From the UHGV virus genome UHGV-0142425: DNA of 64,000 nucleotides; one strand, given 5' to 3'. The position numbers and the translations under genes were made by a program. Positions 5,049-12,177 of this stretch are shown here, piece by piece (positions within the stretch are counted from its first letter, which is position 1; each line of letters opens with the position of its first letter). Under the pieces are notes generated by a model. The model saw nothing but the letters and a program-made list of their open reading frames with translations, did not search any database and was not told the DNA's origin. The stretch comes from a virus.

Positions 5049-5429
5049 TCAGGTCTTGGAACCATATAGTTCACGTAGCTTTTCTGCGACTGAAGATACG
5101 GCGATTTCACCAGTTGCAGCCCCTACGGTAAGGTCTACCAGTTCAGGTGAGTCAAATACCTGCACCCCATTACGGCGTAGGAATAGCAGCGCACTGTTTA
5201 GCGCGGTACGCTTATTGGCATCATTGAATATATGCCCTCTCGCAGTAGCCACCAGGTAGGTTGCGGAGACTTCGAAAAGGTCGGTAATCTCTTCGTACAC
5301 AACTCTGGCCTGGACTCTCCCGATAATGGCCTCTGCCCTGCCCGGATCTGACATGCCAGGCAGGCCGCCGTAGCGGTTTATATTCGCATCATGAAGCGCA
5401 ATAAGTTCTTCCGGTGATATATGCCTCAT
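5049..5429 (-). CDS. doc: Doc toxin (Fic-fold kinase), addiction module, 126 aa
   Basis: Protein recognised as P1 Doc; directly downstream of phd with ATGA overlap. Confidence 0.9.
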
Positions 5430-5650
5430 TATCGGTTAACCAGTTCCTTGTTGGTGGAGTCCAGGGTGTCAAACAGGGATGCAAATTCAGCATCCAGCGC
5501 CGCTTTTTTGTAGGCTTCGAAAGTAGCCTTGCTGACAATTACTGCTGGCTCACGGCCTCTGCGGGTGATTTCAACCTCTTCCCCGGCTTCAACATTGTTG
5601 AGCACTTCAGAAAGGTTGCCGCGCGCGGTACGGAAGTTAATGGATTGCAT
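5429..5650 (-). CDS. phd: Phd antitoxin, 73 aa (start at the second Met of the 75-aa ORF)
   Basis: [52 protein letters not shown]... recognised as P1 Phd. Confidence 0.9.
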
Positions 5651-5654
5651 AAAC

Positions 5655-5685
5655 ACCTCGTGTACTCGTTATGTGTACACAATTA
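5655..5685. promoter_or_regulatory. phd-doc promoter/operator with GTGTAC-type palindromes (TGTGTACACA at 5672-5681)
   Basis: Palindromes read directly upstream of phd; Phd/Doc autoregulation is established for P1. Confidence 0.6.
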
Positions 5686-5722: not shown

Positions 5723-6112
5723 TTAAATCACCGGACAATCATCAAATTCCCCACTTCGGGCATCATTGATGACATGAGTGATCACACCAAAAACAGCATT
5801 ACTGCCCGTGTATCCATCGTCATCCACTGGTAACGCCTCTTTCTTCCCGGTGCTTAAATCCTCCAGGTGCTGGCGCGGATACTTCCGGTATCTCTTTATG
5901 CGATATTCACCCTCCATAGCGCACACAAGCAGAGAACCATCAACCGGAGTAAGCGAGGAATCAACCACCAGCAAAGCACCCTGCAATATTCCCTCACGGT
6001 GATGGCTATCAGCTGCCCGCATGAAGTAGGTTGCTGATGGATGCCTGATTAGTTGCTGATCAAGAGAAATTCGGCTTTCAACATAATCCGCCGCAGGAGA
6101 AGGGAAGCCCAT
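5723..6112 (-). CDS. humD: UmuD-like SOS mutagenesis protein (LexA/S24 peptidase fold), 129 aa
   Basis: Recognised as P1 HumD; canonical LexA box 20 bp upstream. Confidence 0.85.
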   Translation of the reverse strand: MGFPSPAADYVESRISLDQQLIRHPSATYFMRAADSHHREGILQGALLVVDSSLTPVDGSLLVCAMEGEYRIKRYRKYPRQHLEDLSTGKKEALPVDDDGYTGSNAVFGVITHVINDARSGEFDDCPVI

Positions 6113-6131
6113 AGCGTTTTCACCTCAATAA

Positions 6132-6151
6132 TACTGTTCATTTATACAGTA
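6132..6151. promoter_or_regulatory. LexA (SOS) box TACTGTTCATTTATACAGTA between divergent humD and the 6287 gene
   Basis: Exact CTGT-N8-ACAG palindrome matching the E. coli SOS box consensus. Confidence 0.85.
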
Positions 6152-6286
6152 TACATTAAAGAGACACCTTTGGTGCAAACGCGTTACGTACATCAACCAC
6201 CGCTGATTATTTTGTGCTCTTTGCTACTATTCATCACCAACGGATCAGCGTAACCTCGTTGCCAATCAGTTAATAAGGAATTAGCT

Positions 6287-6868
6287 ATGCCTAATCGCAT
6301 TCCTCTCGATCCTGTATTGCCCAAAAATTTTGACTGCACTCCTAACGAGAAACGCTCTAAAGCTCAGCTGGACGCCTGGTGGGACCATCCCTATGGGGTT
6401 ACACACCCTGACGGGAAAATTGTTGTTTATTGTCTGAATGGTGGCGCGTGGGACCGTCCATCCGTGCTTGGTTTGGCAAATAACTATGATGAAGCCTGTG
6501 AACTTGCCGAAAGACAGCAGGCTAGATGGGTGAAAACACGGTCACAGCCGACATTCATGTTTTCAAAAGAACCGCCATTTATACTGGCGAGGATGCCGCA
6601 GCGACCGGATCATCAACAAGAAATTGTTGCTGAATTTTCCTCAAGGGATGAGATGAATCTCTTCTCATTAAAGCAGGAAGAAAGGGAGCGCGTCGAAGTG
6701 TCTCCAACTCTCGACCACAACCGGATGAACCTGGCCCAACTCGCCTGGTACAGCAAAGAATTAGAGATGTCTATTGCCCGACTTGAAAACGAAAAAGCCG
6801 CTATCCAAGCCCAGCATGAAGTAGTTCTGAACCGGATTAGAGAAATGCAAAACGATAATAGAGGCTAA
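6287..6868 (+). CDS. Hypothetical protein, 193 aa, C-terminal coiled coil; divergent from humD and probably SOS-regulated
   Basis: ORF track; AAGGA RBS; shares the LexA-box intergenic region. Confidence 0.6.
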   Translation: MPNRIPLDPVLPKNFDCTPNEKRSKAQLDAWWDHPYGVTHPDGKIVVYCLNGGAWDRPSVLGLANNYDEACELAERQQARWVKTRSQPTFMFSKEPPFILARMPQRPDHQQEIVAEFSSRDEMNLFSLKQEERERVEVSPTLDHNRMNLAQLAWYSKELEMSIARLENEKAAIQAQHEVVLNRIREMQNDNRG

Positions 6869-6892
6869 ATCGAGGTAGAAAACACATTGTTT

Positions 6893-6913
6893 AAGGCCAC
6901 TAATTGTGGCCTC
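6893..6913. terminator. Hairpin (GGCCAC-TAATT-GTGGCC) between convergent genes
   Basis: Inverted repeat read in sequence. Confidence 0.5.
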
Positions 6914-6928
6914 AAAGGGGAGAGATGC

Positions 6929-7453
6929 TTATTGGCTATGGCTAAAAATCAAATGAGACACTTCATGTGGTTGTAGCTCGTCAAGATCCGGGGCCACAAA
7001 ACCTTTTCCGAAAGACTTCACAAGTAATTCACCAGCCGCATCATTGTCACCTATTACACGAAAGTCATACGGCAGCATCGCAAGTTGACGGCGTAATCCT
7101 GCGGAGAAAGTCGAACCTAACAGCGCCCACGAATTGCCGCCCGCGTTGTGTACAGCTGCGCTCTTAAAAATAGACTCAGTTATCCATATTGGGCCATCTT
7201 TTAAAGGAAGATAGGTTCCCCAAAGTAACTGTTTGCCATGTGATCGCGTGAAATACCGAGCCATCTTCGGATTGCTATGCTGCTTAGGAGCACCTGGTCT
7301 ATATGTCTGATACCCAGCCAACATCCCATCAAATCTGTATAGAGGGAATGTAACTACTCCTTCACTTTCATCGATCCACTGTCTATATGGGTGTATATCA
7401 TGGCGGTAGTTACGAGTTAGCAAATGAGCTTCCAGCTTTCCAAATTTTGTCAT
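6929..7453 (-). CDS. Small Toprim-like protein, about 174 aa
   Basis: Motifs ITESIF (Glu) and VIGDNDAAGELL (DxD) resemble primase/topoisomerase Toprim; start at Met with AGGAAG RBS. Confidence 0.45.
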   Translation of the reverse strand: MTKFGKLEAHLLTRNYRHDIHPYRQWIDESEGVVTFPLYRFDGMLAGYQTYRPGAPKQHSNPKMARYFTRSHGKQLLWGTYLPLKDGPIWITESIFKSAAVHNAGGNSWALLGSTFSAGLRRQLAMLPYDFRVIGDNDAAGELLVKSFGKGFVAPDLDELQPHEVSHLIFSHSQ

Positions 7454-7501
7454 AATTCCGTTCTTCCTGGCTTTTAGCTGCAATATTGCAGTTGCTCATG
7501 T

Positions 7502-7774
7502 TTAAAGCTCACATTTCCAGATGGTATTCTGAACACCCGAACCGGGAGCGAGATGGGGATTAGCGTTCGCGCTATGCTGATATACGGCTTTAGACTTCCC
7601 ATATTGCTGACAGGCTTTATCTGCGGTTTTTTGCAAGCTATCAAGGCCATACCAACCATCTGACTGTATGCTTACCTTTTCACCGTCGTTGTATTGCACC
7701 ATTGCACACCCAGATATAGCCAGTATCGCGCCGACAATAACGCTTTTCCATAAAACTCTATACAACATAGACAA
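7502..7774 (-). CDS. Small lipoprotein, 90 aa
   Basis: Signal peptide with lipobox ...AILAISGC. Confidence 0.55.
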   Translation of the reverse strand: MSMLYRVLWKSVIVGAILAISGCAMVQYNDGEKVSIQSDGWYGLDSLQKTADKACQQYGKSKAVYQHSANANPHLAPGSGVQNTIWKCEL

Positions 7775-7813
7775 AAATCCCCTCTGTGAATTGAGGGGAT
7801 TTTAGCATGGTGA

Positions 7814-8071
7814 TCAGAGATCAGCTTTATGCAGAATTTTATCCACCAGCGATGTGATTTTTTCTGCCAGGTCATCATTACTTACCCAATCCTGGCGGGC
7901 AGCCAGAACGGGCGACAAAGTTAATATTAACTCTCGCCGTAATGATGCGTTCCGTGGTGCTAGTGGTGGTTTAAGCCCCTCGCTCCCTTGTATTTCTGGG
8001 GTATGCGGCTGATAGCCATTAATCATCCTTTTTTTCTCCATTTTCGGTGGGCGCGGACGCGGGAGAATCAT
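7814..8071 (-). CDS. Hypothetical Pro-rich protein, about 85 aa
   Basis: ORF track 7814..8101; start chosen at Met with GAGAAAGGA RBS. Confidence 0.4.
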   Translation of the reverse strand: MILPRPRPPKMEKKRMINGYQPHTPEIQGSEGLKPPLAPRNASLRRELILTLSPVLAARQDWVSNDDLAEKITSLVDKILHKADL

Positions 8072-8376
8072 GATTCCTTTCTCTTCCTGCATACTGGGCA
8101 TGTGTTCTCTGTGAAATATGGGAAACTATTATCCAGCTCATCTACCCACTGTTTATGGTCGAAGCAGAAAAATATCTCCCACGGCATTCCATATTCTTCC
8201 ATCCATAGGCGGATCTGCATTTCTATTGGAATCGGCGGTATTGCAGACACCATATCAACAGGATAACAGTTCAGACGACGTTCCAGTTCTTCTACTCTCT
8301 TCTGGAGATGAAATATCCGATCCAGATGCACACGCCGCTCCCGTGCCATTTTAAAATAAAGCTCGCCGGTCATCAT
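8068..8376 (-). CDS. Coiled-coil plus C-terminal Zn-ribbon-like protein, paralogue A (102 aa)
   Basis: C-terminal W-x-F-C-x-DH-x-W-x-DELD-x-SFPYF-x-E-x3-CPxCR shared with the adjacent gene. Confidence 0.55.
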   Translation of the reverse strand: MMTGELYFKMARERRVHLDRIFHLQKRVEELERRLNCYPVDMVSAIPPIPIEMQIRLWMEEYGMPWEIFFCFDHKQWVDELDNSFPYFTENTCPVCRKRKES

Positions 8377-8657
8377 TAACTCCTACATTCAGGGCAAGAG
8401 TTCCCTTCCGCAAAATAGGGGAAACTGCTATCAAGCTCATCACACCATCTGCGATGGTCGTAGCACCAAAACGCCTCCCACGGTGCACGGAAATACTTCA
8501 TCCACCAGGACACTCGATCAGGTATATCTGCTGGTGGCAGCTCTTCTGGCAATAATTTGCCTGATAATTCCCTTTCCGCCCGCGCCAGCATTCCTTTTAG
8601 ACTCGCATTCTCTTTTTCAAGAATCTCTATGCGCGCCTGTAACTCAGCTTTCGTTGG
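8376..8657 (-). CDS. Coiled-coil plus C-terminal Zn-ribbon-like protein, paralogue B (about 94 aa)
   Basis: Same C-terminal motif as 8068..8376; start chosen at MPTKAEL with GAGG RBS (ORF track extends to 8741). Confidence 0.5.
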   Translation of the reverse strand, partial: PTKAELQARIEILEKENASLKGMLARAERELSGKLLPEELPPADIPDRVSWWMKYFRAPWEAFWCYDHRRWCDELDSSFPYFAEGNSCPECRS

Positions 8658-9324
8658 CATGGTCCGCCTCATGCTTTTCAGCCACCAGCGGCAATAAAGC
8701 CCTGGCCATCTTATGAACCAATAGTGCATCAATAATGCCAAGCGTATGCCCCGGCTTAATGTTTAATGCCGCCTCAAGGTGACACCTTTCCAAGCCACTT
8801 TTCTCGGCTTGTTTATGATGATCTGGCGTAATAACGTCGCCCAAAACACGGCTAATTCTTTCTCGTAATTGCTGGGTGCCAGCACACTTGATCGCTGTAT
8901 CGTGGAGACGGTTAACCAGTTCGCGATAAACATGCGGCTTAATGCGGATACGTCCACCGGTGACGCCCTTTCCTGGCGCTGACACCGAACTATCCGGAAT
9001 ATCCGGATAGTTGCCAGCCTCGTAAGCTACCCGCAGCCAGTGCATGAATGTTTCAGTGGACACACAACCACAGTCCACATCGATTTTTCCGCGTTGCTGT
9101 TCCAGCCACTGCTCAAAATTCAATCTACACGTATTACTTTCATGTTGCTCTTTTTGTCTCAAGGCCAGTACCTGTTGGGCCAGTTCCAGAACGATACCGG
9201 GTGACGCTAACCTCTCAAATTCCAATAAATAGTTTGTGTCAGGATGACAAGTAGCCTCGCCTGCAAAAAATACCAATTGCTGTAAGTATGCTGTCGTTAG
9301 AGTAGTCATTTCTTTTTGCGCCAT
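8644..9324 (-). CDS. Hypothetical protein, 226 aa
   Basis: ORF track; translationally coupled in the operon. Confidence 0.5.
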   Translation of the reverse strand: MAQKEMTTLTTAYLQQLVFFAGEATCHPDTNYLLEFERLASPGIVLELAQQVLALRQKEQHESNTCRLNFEQWLEQQRGKIDVDCGCVSTETFMHWLRVAYEAGNYPDIPDSSVSAPGKGVTGGRIRIKPHVYRELVNRLHDTAIKCAGTQQLRERISRVLGDVITPDHHKQAEKSGLERCHLEAALNIKPGHTLGIIDALLVHKMARALLPLVAEKHEADHANES

Positions 9325-9680
9325 TTCTTTTCACATTCCTTAGTCCATTTTTCAATGTTCATTTTGGCAATATCAGTCATTCCGTCACCCAAGAAATACT
9401 TTTTCCGGTATGTCTTGCACTTAAACCACACTACAACAGCCACCAGCCAGAAAATAAAAGGCCATACAGCAATGCCAACGACAGCCGCGATAAAGCCCAA
9501 TAGCCATAAATGAAGCTCTCCAACTTCTGTTTCCGGCAATATTCTTAAAGAATTAAACAGCAGGGTGAACGAATGATCGTATGCATTGGCAGTATAAGAC
9601 ATGCAATCCATATAATTAAAGTCATAGCCTGCGGCTGCCGCCCATAATGGGCGGTCAAGAAAATGTTTTAGTGTCATCAT
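9306..9680 (-). CDS. Membrane protein (one long hydrophobic segment, Lys-rich C-terminus), 124 aa
   Basis: Hydrophobic stretch LWLLGFIAAVVGIAVWPFIFWLVAVVVWF. Confidence 0.5.
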   Translation of the reverse strand: MMTLKHFLDRPLWAAAAGYDFNYMDCMSYTANAYDHSFTLLFNSLRILPETEVGELHLWLLGFIAAVVGIAVWPFIFWLVAVVVWFKCKTYRKKYFLGDGMTDIAKMNIEKWTKECEKKWRKKK

Positions 9681-9686
9681 ATTAAT

Positions 9687-9980
9687 TTAAGGTTCAGACC
9701 AGTTATCTTCAATAGCAATGCTTAATCTTTGTAGCCATTCTGCTAATTTCAGCATTGCTTCTCTTTCGCTTAAACCACGAGGAAAATCATCAAGCGATAT
9801 TGTTGGCTTGAAGCCCCCGTAATTATCCATTTCAACGGTCAGATTTTGCTCCAGTACGGTATTCCTTACGCGGCTATTGTGGCGAAGCAAATATACTGAA
9901 CGTGATTTATTGGTTTTGTGGTCGAGCTGATATTCGGTAAGTATCATCTGGCTTTTGCCATGACTATTACCTCTCCACAT
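9687..9980 (-). CDS. Hypothetical soluble protein, about 97 aa, coupled to the upstream hydrophobic peptide
   Basis: Start ATG overlaps GAGGTAAG RBS right after the peptide stop; ORF track gives a longer 129-aa frame. Confidence 0.4.
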   Translation of the reverse strand: MWRGNSHGKSQMILTEYQLDHKTNKSRSVYLLRHNSRVRNTVLEQNLTVEMDNYGGFKPTISLDDFPRGLSEREAMLKLAEWLQRLSIAIEDNWSEP

Positions 9981-9987
9981 ACTTACC

Positions 9988-10110
9988 TCACTTAATAAAA
10001 CAACTCCATGCGTAGTTGATGATTTTTTCCCACGTAATATAAATCTGCACTCCGGCAGTAAAACCAAAGCCAACAATTGCTGAAAAAATCAAAACATTTA
10101 CTTTTGACAT
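9988..10110 (-). CDS. Small hydrophobic peptide, 39 aa (MSKVNVLIFSAIVGFGFTAGVQIYITWEKIINYAWSCFIK)
   Basis: Read manually; below the ORF-track size cutoff; single predicted TM helix. Confidence 0.35.
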   Translation of the reverse strand: MSKVNVLIFSAIVGFGFTAGVQIYITWEKIINYAWSCFIK

Positions 10111-10158
10111 TATAAATTTTCTCTCGGTGTCGTAGGTGATAGCACCATAATTGATAAT

Positions 10159-10392
10159 TTAGTGAGTTAGCAGCTCCATTTTTTGGATGATTTCCGCATG
10201 AGCATCATCGTTATCAACACTTAACTCGTTTAATGCCTCTCGCACCACATCAACTTCTTCTGGTTGGAAGAAATCATCTCGGTAGTCACCAAATAGAACC
10301 GAAACAAGCCTGCCACCAGCAACATCAAGATTGGCGCTAACAGGTGGCTCTTTACCATCCTCAAATTCGACTACAAAAGTTATTTTTCCCAT
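10159..10392 (-). CDS. Hypothetical acidic protein, about 77 aa
   Basis: ORF track 10159..10410; start at MGKITFVV. Confidence 0.45.
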   Translation of the reverse strand: MGKITFVVEFEDGKEPPVSANLDVAGGRLVSVLFGDYRDDFFQPEEVDVVREALNELSVDNDDAHAEIIQKMELLTH

Positions 10393-10474
10393 CGTTACCA
10401 CCAGCGACAAATTGAATACAAACCCAGTGCTGCCGCCATCACAATTCCTACCGTGGTGAATGCTTCAGGCCAGC

Positions 10475-11746
10475 TCATTGATTCACCTCCTGCGGCGGTT
10501 CTGGTAGCGGCATCCAGTGTGATGGTTTCCACGACGCACCAGGAATTATCCACCCATCATTAGCGTCAGGATGCCCCGGGATGTAAGTAGCCCATTTCAT
10601 TCGCCAGTCACCTTTCCTGTCAAACTCCACGGCAACAAGAACGGCTGTTTTGGTATCCGGCATTCGCTCACTACAGCTTATCCAACCATCCGGAGTTACC
10701 GGAGAGTTGCCAGCTAGTCTACGCAAAACAGCCTTAACAGCCTCAATACGGTCATCATCGCAACTTTCCAGCGTATCTATGCGATCGAGCATGATGATGG
10801 CGTTATCAATATCAGGATTGCCGGTCCACTCATTACCGCGATTGGATTCGGCAGCCTGGTTGCCAGATGCTGGTTGATTGTCGGCATGGCTATAGCTAAC
10901 AGCACGGCAGGCATCCTCAACGCCTTTAACTGCATCTGCGCAGTAGTTATAGCGATTGCATTCCACTAATTTCCGTTTGAGTTTTTCAATTGCCTGCGCG
11001 ACATCAGCCTGCATTACCGGAACTGGCGGAACGGCTGTTTGCTCTCGAACGTCATTAGTCGCTATCGGTTCTGCTGCCAACTGACTGGCATATTTGTTAA
11101 TGGTAACGATAAGCTCTTGCTCAGCCTCATCCAGACAATCATCGATACCTCGCCTGTCACCGTCAAAATCATCGAAATCGGCACGAATCTTGGCAACCTT
11201 CAGGATTGCGGACAACACCTCACTAGGAATTACCGGATAGTTGGTTGACGTTTCCGCGATTTCCCGAAAATTATTGGTTGACGAATTCTTGTTTTCCCGA
11301 AAGTTTCCGGACTGAAGCATGGCGTCGCTCCGCTCTATACCATCCAGCGCGATTCGCAGTGCCTGAATTGTGGTAGAGCTATCGTTTGGGGCTATTCCAT
11401 ATCGCTCGAATACAGCTAAATGGTTGCGCATAATCTCAGGCGTAAGCTCTTTGTAAGCATAAGCAAGAGGCTCTGATGCATTATCCGGCACAACCGACGC
11501 AGGCGCGGCAGCATAAACAGGAATAACGTCCGCTTGCTCTTTATTGCTTTCATCCGTTAAAGCCCAGAATAATTTCCCGGCCGGATGTTTGAAAATATAA
11601 GCAACTGGTTCTGCTTCCAGTGATGCCAGCGCAATTTTGTATACTTCCAGATCCATTTGTGCAGTTACTAAATCAGGATAACGATCCATAACCGTTATAT
11701 TGCGCTTAATCATCTCTATTAATTGTTCTTTAGTAAAAGTGGTCAT
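10475..11746 (-). CDS. Ead/Ea22-like N-terminal region fused to a DUF551-like C-terminal domain, 423 aa
   Basis: N-terminus MTTFTKEQLIEM...LASLEAEP; C-terminus WISCSERMPD...WMPLPEPP; pattern recognition, no search. Confidence 0.5.
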   Translation of the reverse strand: MTTFTKEQLIEMIKRNITVMDRYPDLVTAQMDLEVYKIALASLEAEPVAYIFKHPAGKLFWALTDESNKEQADVIPVYAAAPASVVPDNASEPLAYAYKELTPEIMRNHLAVFERYGIAPNDSSTTIQALRIALDGIERSDAMLQSGNFRENKNSSTNNFREIAETSTNYPVIPSEVLSAILKVAKIRADFDDFDGDRRGIDDCLDEAEQELIVTINKYASQLAAEPIATNDVREQTAVPPVPVMQADVAQAIEKLKRKLVECNRYNYCADAVKGVEDACRAVSYSHADNQPASGNQAAESNRGNEWTGNPDIDNAIIMLDRIDTLESCDDDRIEAVKAVLRRLAGNSPVTPDGWISCSERMPDTKTAVLVAVEFDRKGDWRMKWATYIPGHPDANDGWIIPGASWKPSHWMPLPEPPQEVNQ

Positions 11747-11756
11747 TCGTTATGCC

Positions 11757-11954
11757 TCAATACACAAAATCTGTTTTAAATTCATGGTTACATTCTGGAC
11801 AGCATGTTTCGTAACCTTTTATTTCTTCACATGCCTGTTTTGCTCCAGAAAATTCCCAGAAATCTGGATCACAAAGCAGATCGAAATTGTGACCGCATTT
11901 TGGGCATTCGGTATCAAGTGACAGATTCCAGTAAGCAGTGGTGTTTTTATCCAT
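11757..11954 (-). CDS. Small zinc-ribbon protein, about 65 aa
   Basis: CPKCGH...CCPECNH motifs. Confidence 0.45.
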   Translation of the reverse strand: MDKNTTAYWNLSLDTECPKCGHNFDLLCDPDFWEFSGAKQACEEIKGYETCCPECNHEFKTDFVY

Positions 11955-11955
11955 A

Positions 11956-12177
11956 TCAGTCTCCTTTACCCGCTGCTTTCTCCTGCTCTTTAGCAAGCCG
12001 CTCCGCTTCTCTGAAATCCCAATCCACTCGATGTGCTATATCAATTGCAGAACGCACGGTCCGTTCAATTAGCGTGTCCAGATTATCAATTGTCATTGCC
12101 ATATCTGGATTGCGAGATAAAATCTCCGCCCTCTGAATCTGCCAGTTGTTGCAGGTTTCAAGTAATGAGTTAGCCAT
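11956..12177 (-). CDS. Hypothetical protein, about 73 aa
   Basis: Start at MANSLLE with GGAAAGG RBS; stop/start overlap with neighbour. Confidence 0.4.
   Translation of the reverse strand: MANSLLETCNNWQIQRAEILSRNPDMAMTIDNLDTLIERTVRSAIDIAHRVDWDFREAERLAKEQEKAAGKGD

Follow-up and report, generated by a model that had tools for sequence, protein, structure and literature searches.

The window considered here is the whole stretch of 64,000 nucleotides that was analysed from the virus genome UHGV-0142425, and the subjects of this report are two adjacent genes on its minus strand, B and A, which encode small paralogous proteins (Table 1). An earlier reading of the letters alone (the sequence-only reading) had placed a tandem pair of coiled-coil/zinc-ribbon genes at positions 8068-8657. 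Two adjacent minus-strand open reading frames (ORFs) are indeed present there, but the interval ends 3 nt short of the start of gene B. Both ORFs are intact and each has its own Shine-Dalgarno sequence, and the possibility that one copy is a pseudogene, which the same reading had raised, does not apply to this window. Gene B overlaps the end of the gene upstream of it, the start codon of A overlaps the stop codon of B, and the stop codon of A in turn overlaps the start of the next ORF as ATGA. Together with the Shine-Dalgarno sequences, this chain of overlapping stop and start codons suggests that the upstream gene, B, A and the next ORF are translationally coupled. RefSeq homologues of A use the second ATG (8373) and are thus 101 amino acids (aa) long. 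Plasmid pKFu022_2 carries a gene that is 100% identical to B and is annotated as a coding sequence. Additionally, intact B genes were left unannotated in the RefSeq records of RCS47 (L014 3501..3782) and pNJS001-1 (L017 1498..1781).

Table 1. Coordinates of genes A and B, their predicted domains and expression signals, and neighbouring features in the 64-kb window
Feature	Position	Strand	Details
Gene B	8376..8660	minus	94 aa, MPTKAELQ...CPECRS; ATG 8660..8658, TAA 8378..8376
Shine-Dalgarno of B, GAGG	8667..8670	minus	6 nt before the B ATG; within the 3' end of the upstream gene (8644..9324)
B helix (putative coiled coil)	8562..8651	minus	residues 4-33; heptad L7, I11, L14, N18, L21, L25, A28, L32 at a/d
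B zinc-binding domain (predicted)	8379..8531	minus	residues 44-94; C66 (8463..8465), H69 (8454..8456), C89 (8394..8396), C92 (8385..8387)
Gene A	8068..8376	minus	102 aa, MMTGELYFKMARERR...CPVCRKRKES; ATG overlaps the B stop codon as TAATG
Shine-Dalgarno of A, AGGAG	8380..8384	minus	inside the last codons of B; 3 nt and 6 nt before the two ATGs of A
A N-terminal part	8272..8364	minus	residues 5-35; conserved ELYFKMARERR, then heptad helix I21, L24, V28, L31, L35
A zinc-binding domain (predicted)	8071..8241	minus	residues 46-102; C71 (8164..8166), H74 (8155..8157), C93 (8098..8100), C96 (8089..8091)
Upstream gene	8644..9324	minus	226 aa; pmgU-like annotation, 'putative morphogenetic function'; overlaps B by 17 nt
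ORF downstream of A	7814..8101, probable start 8071	minus	85 aa from the start MILPRPR
Terminator-like hairpin before lipoprotein ORF	7803..7774	minus	11-bp stem, T-rich tail
Lipoprotein ORF	7502..7774	minus	90 aa; lipobox AISG/C; phrog_7757, function unknown
Stand-alone Toprim protein	6929..7483	minus	184 aa; matches only positions 139-333 of the 435-position phrog_849 'DNA primase' profile
Terminator-like hairpin after Toprim gene	6916..6890
LexA box, perfect consensus CTGTTCATTTATACAG	6134..6149		just upstream of humD; divergent intergenic region shared with plus-strand gene 6287..6868
humD	5723..6112	minus	UmuD' homologue
phd-doc pair, genuine	5049..5656

Comparative analyses indicate that A and B are true paralogues. 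The alignment that the sequence-only reading had proposed gives 28 identities over 54 amino acids (52%, BLASTP E 5e-22), restricted to the C-terminal halves, and both proteins carry there the common motif PWExF(W/F)CxDHxxWxDELDxSFPYF...CPxCR that had drawn attention to the pair. At the DNA level the same C-terminal stretch is 73% identical over 104 nt and contains no long identical tract, and the remainder of the two genes cannot be aligned. The N-terminal thirds had been described as diverged, and this too is borne out: they are helices, either predicted or indicated by a heptad pattern, that resemble each other little in sequence.

The conserved C-terminal domain has four candidate metal ligands in the pattern C-x2-H-x19/20-C-x2-C. 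In 30 full-length members of the family these four residues are invariant (C66, H69, C89 and C92 in B numbering), as are M54, P60, W61, F64, W72 and P81. When the comparison is widened to 50 domain sequences, none of the three Cys varies, and the His is at least 90% conserved and gives way to Cys in the remotest members (P0093 and P0094), which therefore have CxxC at this point. This exchange of His for Cys at a fixed C-x2-(H/C)-x19-20-C-x2-C spacing points to a structural zinc site with the ligands Cys-His-Cys-Cys (CHCC), and the residue pattern suggests that the domains of both A and B bind zinc there. An AlphaFold2 model of the domain alone has a predicted local distance difference test (pLDDT) score of 91.4. 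DSSP assigns C-x2-H of this model to a beta-hairpin, and a short C-terminal helix begins at CPxC, so the modelled arrangement would be closer to a treble clef than to a zinc ribbon. When compared with the folds of the PDB, the domain model matched neither a zinc ribbon nor any other fold. The label 'zinc ribbon' given by the sequence-only reading therefore has little support, given the C-H-C-C ligands, the position of the second Cys pair and the lack of a zinc-ribbon or other PDB match. The family is acidic (median isoelectric point (pI) 5.18, with 82% of members below pI 6), and the C-terminal domain has a median net charge of -4; nucleic-acid binding is therefore less likely.

The N-terminal helix of B can be read as a putative dimerising leucine-zipper-like coiled coil, according to the model and to a heptad register that was read from the sequence. 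The AlphaFold2 model of full-length B has a mean pLDDT of 91.2, with a helix at residues 4-33 (pLDDT >90) followed by the compact domain. Across the family, L21 and L25 hardly vary, and a core position (Asn18 in B) is Asn or Ile. For A, an N-terminal helix is suggested by homology to B and by its own heptad pattern. Weak profile matches of the helix in the PDB were to the coiled coils of GCN4, SYNZIP and prefoldin, none of them significant (E of at least 0.09 for GCN4 and SYNZIP).

Both proteins belong to PHROG 3797, a family of unknown function, the 94-position profile of which is covered at positions 1-94 by residues 18-98 of A (E 1.6e-36) and by residues 1-94 of B (E 9.3e-58). The PHROG entry has no function, domain description or structure; the two subfamilies, the CHCC site and the conserved B-then-A pairing come from the present analysis. 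The sequence-only reading had not recognised the family, in keeping with its uncharacterised status. Scans of A, B and ten divergent relatives against Pfam, NCBIfam and PADLOC returned nothing significant, PDB searches with single sequences and two profiles returned no match to the zinc domain and solely non-significant coiled-coil matches, and literature searches by accession or PHROG number returned nothing on the family. A hidden Markov model of the domain, run against all ORFs of at least 45 aa in the window, found only two members, A and B. Word-indexed searches gave about 45 clusters (at 90% identity) for B and 14 for A, and an exhaustive profile search of 1.84 billion cluster representatives gave just 49 matches at E <=1e-3, so the family is small. 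In the alignment it divides into two subfamilies, a B-type (MPTKAELQ...) and an A-type (...ELYFKMARERR...).

The distribution of the two types indicates that they have long been distinct. Gene B is present in 146 and gene A in 25 of 5,426 complete E. coli genomes, and among 80 IMG/VR loci that were retrieved with the family profile all have B and 15 have A, always directly downstream of B. Twelve of these 15 pairs are in close P1-like elements. The other three (L094, L095 and L098) are diverged, with B about 60% and A 55-72% identical to the window genes; L094 is the same Citrobacter contig as L023. In pairwise comparisons, window B is 60% identical to Citrobacter B and 63% to B of a Pantoea-type prophage, and window A is 53% identical to Citrobacter A and 58% to A of Klebsiella phage LASTA. 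Between the types, identity is 45% for window A and window B and 35% for Citrobacter A and Citrobacter B. Identity is thus higher within a type than within a locus; A and B are therefore paralogues of long standing, the order of which is fixed in part of the P1-like group, and not the product of a recent tandem duplication. The tandem duplication proposed by the sequence-only reading therefore holds in so far as the genes are paralogues with a conserved metal-binding tail and divergent coiled-coil N-termini, but not as a recent event, because orthologue identities exceed the A-B identity and diverged elements keep the same order. A recent duplication and gene conversion were likewise rejected, on the restriction of the 73% DNA identity to the domain and on these orthologue and paralogue identities. 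Each type also occurs alone, A in LASTA and B in RCS47, many plasmids and Pantoea/Erwinia-type prophages.

Selection on B was estimated from the ratio of nonsynonymous to synonymous substitution rates (dN/dS, Nei-Gojobori) in a small sample of five intact orthologues. The ratio is 0.15-0.41 for the whole gene; codons 1-37 have 0.44-0.57 and codons 38-94 have 0.11-0.28. No value reaches 1, which indicates purifying selection that is relaxed on the coiled coil; the five sequences give no sign of the diversifying selection that had been suspected. The module is also rearranged, and chimeric proteins reveal recombination between the paralogues. Two chimeras (P0004 and P0005) join a B N-terminus to an A zinc domain, a third (P0032) has B residues 1-27 followed by A from residue 13 onward, and a 285-aa protein (P0057) is an in-frame read-through fusion of the upstream 226-aa pmgU-like protein with B. 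These metagenomic and plasmid sequences show that recombination and frameshifting actively reshuffle the module.

Natural immunity of a host against gene B was also encountered. The chromosomal type I-E array of clustered regularly interspaced short palindromic repeats (CRISPR) of E. coli LI60C3, beside cas2e and cas1e, contains a 32-nt spacer that is 100% identical to gene B (L013 1504..1535). The corresponding protospacer lies in B at 8468..8499 and is preceded on the minus strand by 5'-ATG as protospacer-adjacent motif (PAM, 8500..8502). ATG is an interference-proficient type I-E PAM. The identity of the spacer and the presence of this PAM indicate that natural CRISPR immunity targets gene B of P1-like phage-plasmids.

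In the window, B and A are found within a dense minus-strand gene train that runs from about 21,700 down to 6,929. Bases 6000-12000 are approximately 96% identical, in a mosaic pattern, to the Punavirus P1-like phage-plasmids SJ46, P1, P7, RCS47 and D6, and a P1-like gene set (pacB, pacA, lpa, pdcB, doc, phd and humD) lies upstream in window coordinates. The 750 bp around the gene pair have matches in 340 E. coli records, and 333 of the 342 places are plasmid; in 24 E. coli records, one match spans at least 80% of a 751-bp query that covers both B and A. The segment pmgT...hot, lxr, humD has been described as 'highly variable region 8' of P1-like phage-plasmids (PMC9603915), and the B/A region corresponds to it. 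Here, region 8 holds genes of the lambdoid exo-xis type, namely one for a DUF551/EaA-type protein and others in PHROGs common to Ea22-like proteins.

Similar settings are seen in other phages. In the P22-like phage SE1, a family member (a 122-aa ORF, L005 3935..4303) lies between ninF and ninG, and in Pantoea/Erwinia-type lambdoid prophages a member lies in the leftward early operon between the exonuclease gene and xis-int. In a Vibrio phage, the member is the last gene of an accessory operon and adjoins the integrase gene. In a comparison of 28 non-P1 loci, the neighbours that recur are Ead/Ea22-like proteins on the upstream side and excisionase or integrase on the downstream side. Family members are always in early, non-essential accessory regions of temperate phages. 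In lambdoid phages, the exo-xis regions carry genes for small proteins with zinc sites or coiled coils that modulate host physiology and the decision between lysis and lysogeny, namely Ea8.5, the TraR-like Orf73 and Ea22 (PMC8614690). The neighbours in P1-like elements include hot (a homologue of the theta subunit of DNA polymerase III), humD and the stand-alone Toprim gene, and those in other phages include genes for an exonuclease and NinG. By guilt by association, these replication- and repair-type neighbours hint that DNA replication or repair is the process affected.

Taken as a whole, the observations are tentatively best explained if A and B are dimeric, acidic, zinc-headed proteins that modulate a host process by binding to another protein, although we hold this complete account to be somewhat less than an even bet. 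Its structural part is very probable: each protein would consist of a leucine-zipper-like helix of about 30 residues, a proline-rich linker (LPP/IPP) and an aromatic-rich C-terminal domain of about 50 residues, stabilised by a single Zn2+ with the ligands Cys-x2-His...Cys-x2-Cys. The zipper would dimerise the protein, as a homodimer where the gene is alone and possibly as an A-B heterodimer where the coupled pair is present, which is plausible, and the dimer would be an acidic, two-headed particle. A and B would be co-transcribed with exo-xis/ea-type accessory genes of the hypervariable pmgT-humD region. During induction or infection, the zinc heads might then alter a host process by binding a protein of the host, or possibly another one of the phage. 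A host partner is the likelier of the two, but the protein-binding modulator function as such is possible at best and should be regarded with some doubt. DNA binding, a structural role and an antitoxin role are all improbable, and the idea that the proteins form an inhibitor family, as first suggested, is plausible. A more specific proposal, that A and B form a heteromeric, zinc-stabilised coiled-coil complex with a CHCC fold new to the PDB, representing a new class of effector that binds a host replication or SOS component or a defence protein, is unlikely; it would explain why the B-A order is kept across diverged P1-like elements, beside hot, humD and Toprim.

Several observations weigh against a role as host modulators. 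Zinc binding and dimerisation are themselves predictions, and neither a homologue of known function nor a fold match points to a particular activity. No non-family neighbour is conserved across the 28 non-P1 loci, in which only generic exo-xis, integrase and excisionase genes recur. B-type genes are frameshifted or truncated in D6, in pAVS0973-B and in 6 of the 80 IMG/VR loci, and the function is therefore dispensable, as expected of accessory cargo. The acidic pI, finally, lowers the likelihood of nucleic-acid binding without bringing it to zero.

If nucleic acid were bound after all, the proteins could be dimeric regulators of phage or host transcription that combine a basic leucine zipper (bZIP)-like helix with a zinc finger. 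The combination of helix and finger itself, a short conserved basic patch (KMARERR) directly before the heptads of the A-type and a weak bZIP_2 match on B (E 0.32) are consistent with such regulators. B also shares roughly four heptads and a core Asn with GCN4-type zippers, to which, as to SYNZIP, the profile matches are weak. B, however, begins at the zipper and has no basic DNA-binding region, and A has only the short patch, so that a bZIP basic region was found in neither. The matches to GCN4 and SYNZIP are non-significant, the protein and in particular its zinc domain are acidic, no significant helix-turn-helix, bZIP or DNA-binding zinc-finger profile match was obtained, and no conserved operator-like neighbour was seen. 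Regulators of this kind are accordingly improbable. Similar building blocks also occur in proteins that bind the secondary channel of RNA polymerase. DksA and TraR are small and acidic and join a helix or coiled coil to a zinc-finger globule, as A and B appear to do, although their ligand spacing is 17 residues as against 19-20 in A and B. Lambda orf73 even occupies the same niche in the exo-xis region (PMC8614690). In contrast, the hallmarks DxxDxA and ExxRK (PMC8614690) were absent from A and B on inspection, no zf-dskA_traR match was found in Pfam at E up to 1, and the ligands are C-H-C-C instead of C4. Membership in the TraR/DksA family was rejected for the lack of a Pfam match, the missing motifs and the His ligand, and binding to RNA polymerase in the manner of TraR, Orf73 and DksA is very unlikely. 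The comparison extends to the other lambda exo-xis proteins, of which Ea8.5 is a homeodomain/zinc-finger hybrid (PDB 2M7A), Orf73 has a TraR-like C4 zinc site and Ea22 is a coiled coil; in niche, size and building blocks they are like A and B (PMC8614690). They differ in that A and B have CHCC ligands and a parallel-zipper-like N-terminus, and show no sequence or fold similarity to PDB entries, among which 2M7A and the TraR complexes are assumed to be included. Membership in Ea8.5 was rejected for the same lack of similarity, on the assumption that 2M7A is in the copy of the PDB that was searched. An HNH nuclease was also rejected: the position ahead of the His is variable (D, E, K, V, L, R or T), distant members have Cys in place of the His, the Asn ahead of CPxC is not retained and there is no Pfam HNH match.

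The order C-x2-H...C-x2-C resembles the CHC2 finger of DnaG-type primases, in ligand order and in spacing class, and in some P1-like elements a Toprim gene adjoins the pair, so that A or B could be a trans-acting zinc subunit of a split, primase-like enzyme. The partial coverage of the primase profile by the window's Toprim protein (Table 1) and the presence of a Toprim gene directly after 11 of 12 A genes in the P1-like IMG/VR loci fit this idea. Yet the adjacency is not obligatory. Toprim genes without A are seen in L064, L065 and PhiR41_1, T5-like phages have a stand-alone one of about 172 aa, A occurs without Toprim in Citrobacter (L023) and LASTA, and most B genes have no Toprim neighbour. 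No primase zinc domain was matched in Pfam or the PDB by sequence or profile, nor was there a fold match, and a split primase was rejected on co-occurrence and lack of similarity; we consider it about as remote as the RNA polymerase binders. The name 'antitoxin PHD', which RefSeq and UniRef attach to B-type proteins, is all that speaks for B as a Phd-type antitoxin. B compared with the window's own Phd gives a BLASTP E of 0.44, no Pfam or NCBIfam antitoxin is matched, and the real phd-doc pair lies elsewhere (Table 1); next to B is its paralogue A, then the 85-aa ORF, with no toxin-like partner. Lacking both similarity to Phd and an adjoining toxin, this identity is effectively refuted. Where it has been attached to B-type proteins (WP_097449633.1; L016 1498..1782), the name looks like a propagated misannotation. 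The genes could, lastly, have no host target, being either drifting, dispensable selfish cargo, as the frameshifted copies in some elements would suggest, or helpers of morphogenesis, as the flanking P1 pmg genes and the pmgU-like annotation of the upstream gene would suggest. Drift is at odds with dN/dS values well below 1 and with zinc ligands that are invariant over deep divergence, and a morphogenetic role with the placement of relatives in the early (nin, exo-xis) and not the late regions of other phages; either is highly improbable.

P1-like phage-plasmids are frequent in E. coli and Salmonella of clinical and livestock origin, and adaptive cargo gathers in their few hypervariable regions. 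The pair is of interest for its compact zinc domain, which is modelled with confidence and for which Pfam and the PDB contain no detectable relative, for its clear set of residues to test and for its conserved arrangement of two genes, and the present work gives a domain definition for the orphan PHROG 3797. If a host replication, SOS or defence component were indeed targeted, the pair would represent a new family of small-protein modulators and possibly a new zinc fold; the correction of the 'antitoxin PHD' misannotation stands even if there is no host target. The pair is a genuine but modest lead and a reasonable, not exceptional, target for structural and interaction studies.

The ORF downstream of A has no family match in Pfam or PHROGs, and its start at 8071 is probable because of the ATGA overlap with the A stop codon and because pNJS001-1 has an annotated 85-aa homologue (L017 1235..1492). 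The lipoprotein gene, which is preceded by a terminator-like hairpin, could be a separately expressed moron, encoding for instance a surface or exclusion lipoprotein. The Toprim protein is 40-48% identical to the stand-alone Toprim genes of about 172 aa in T5-like phages (in the transfer RNA region) and in a Kayfunavirus; it belongs to a widespread family of small Toprim proteins, annotated as 'primase' on homology only. No LexA box was found near A and B: the window holds two in total, and the one at humD is the only box in the neighbourhood. Two layouts that are more common, Toprim-A-B and hot-lipoprotein-ORF-B, have recombined to give the order Toprim, lipoprotein, 85-aa ORF, A, B (6929..8660). 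No plasmid in PLSDB spans at least 80% of 7484..8800, and an IMG/VR contig (L030) carries B, A and the lipoprotein gene, all 100% identical to those of the window.

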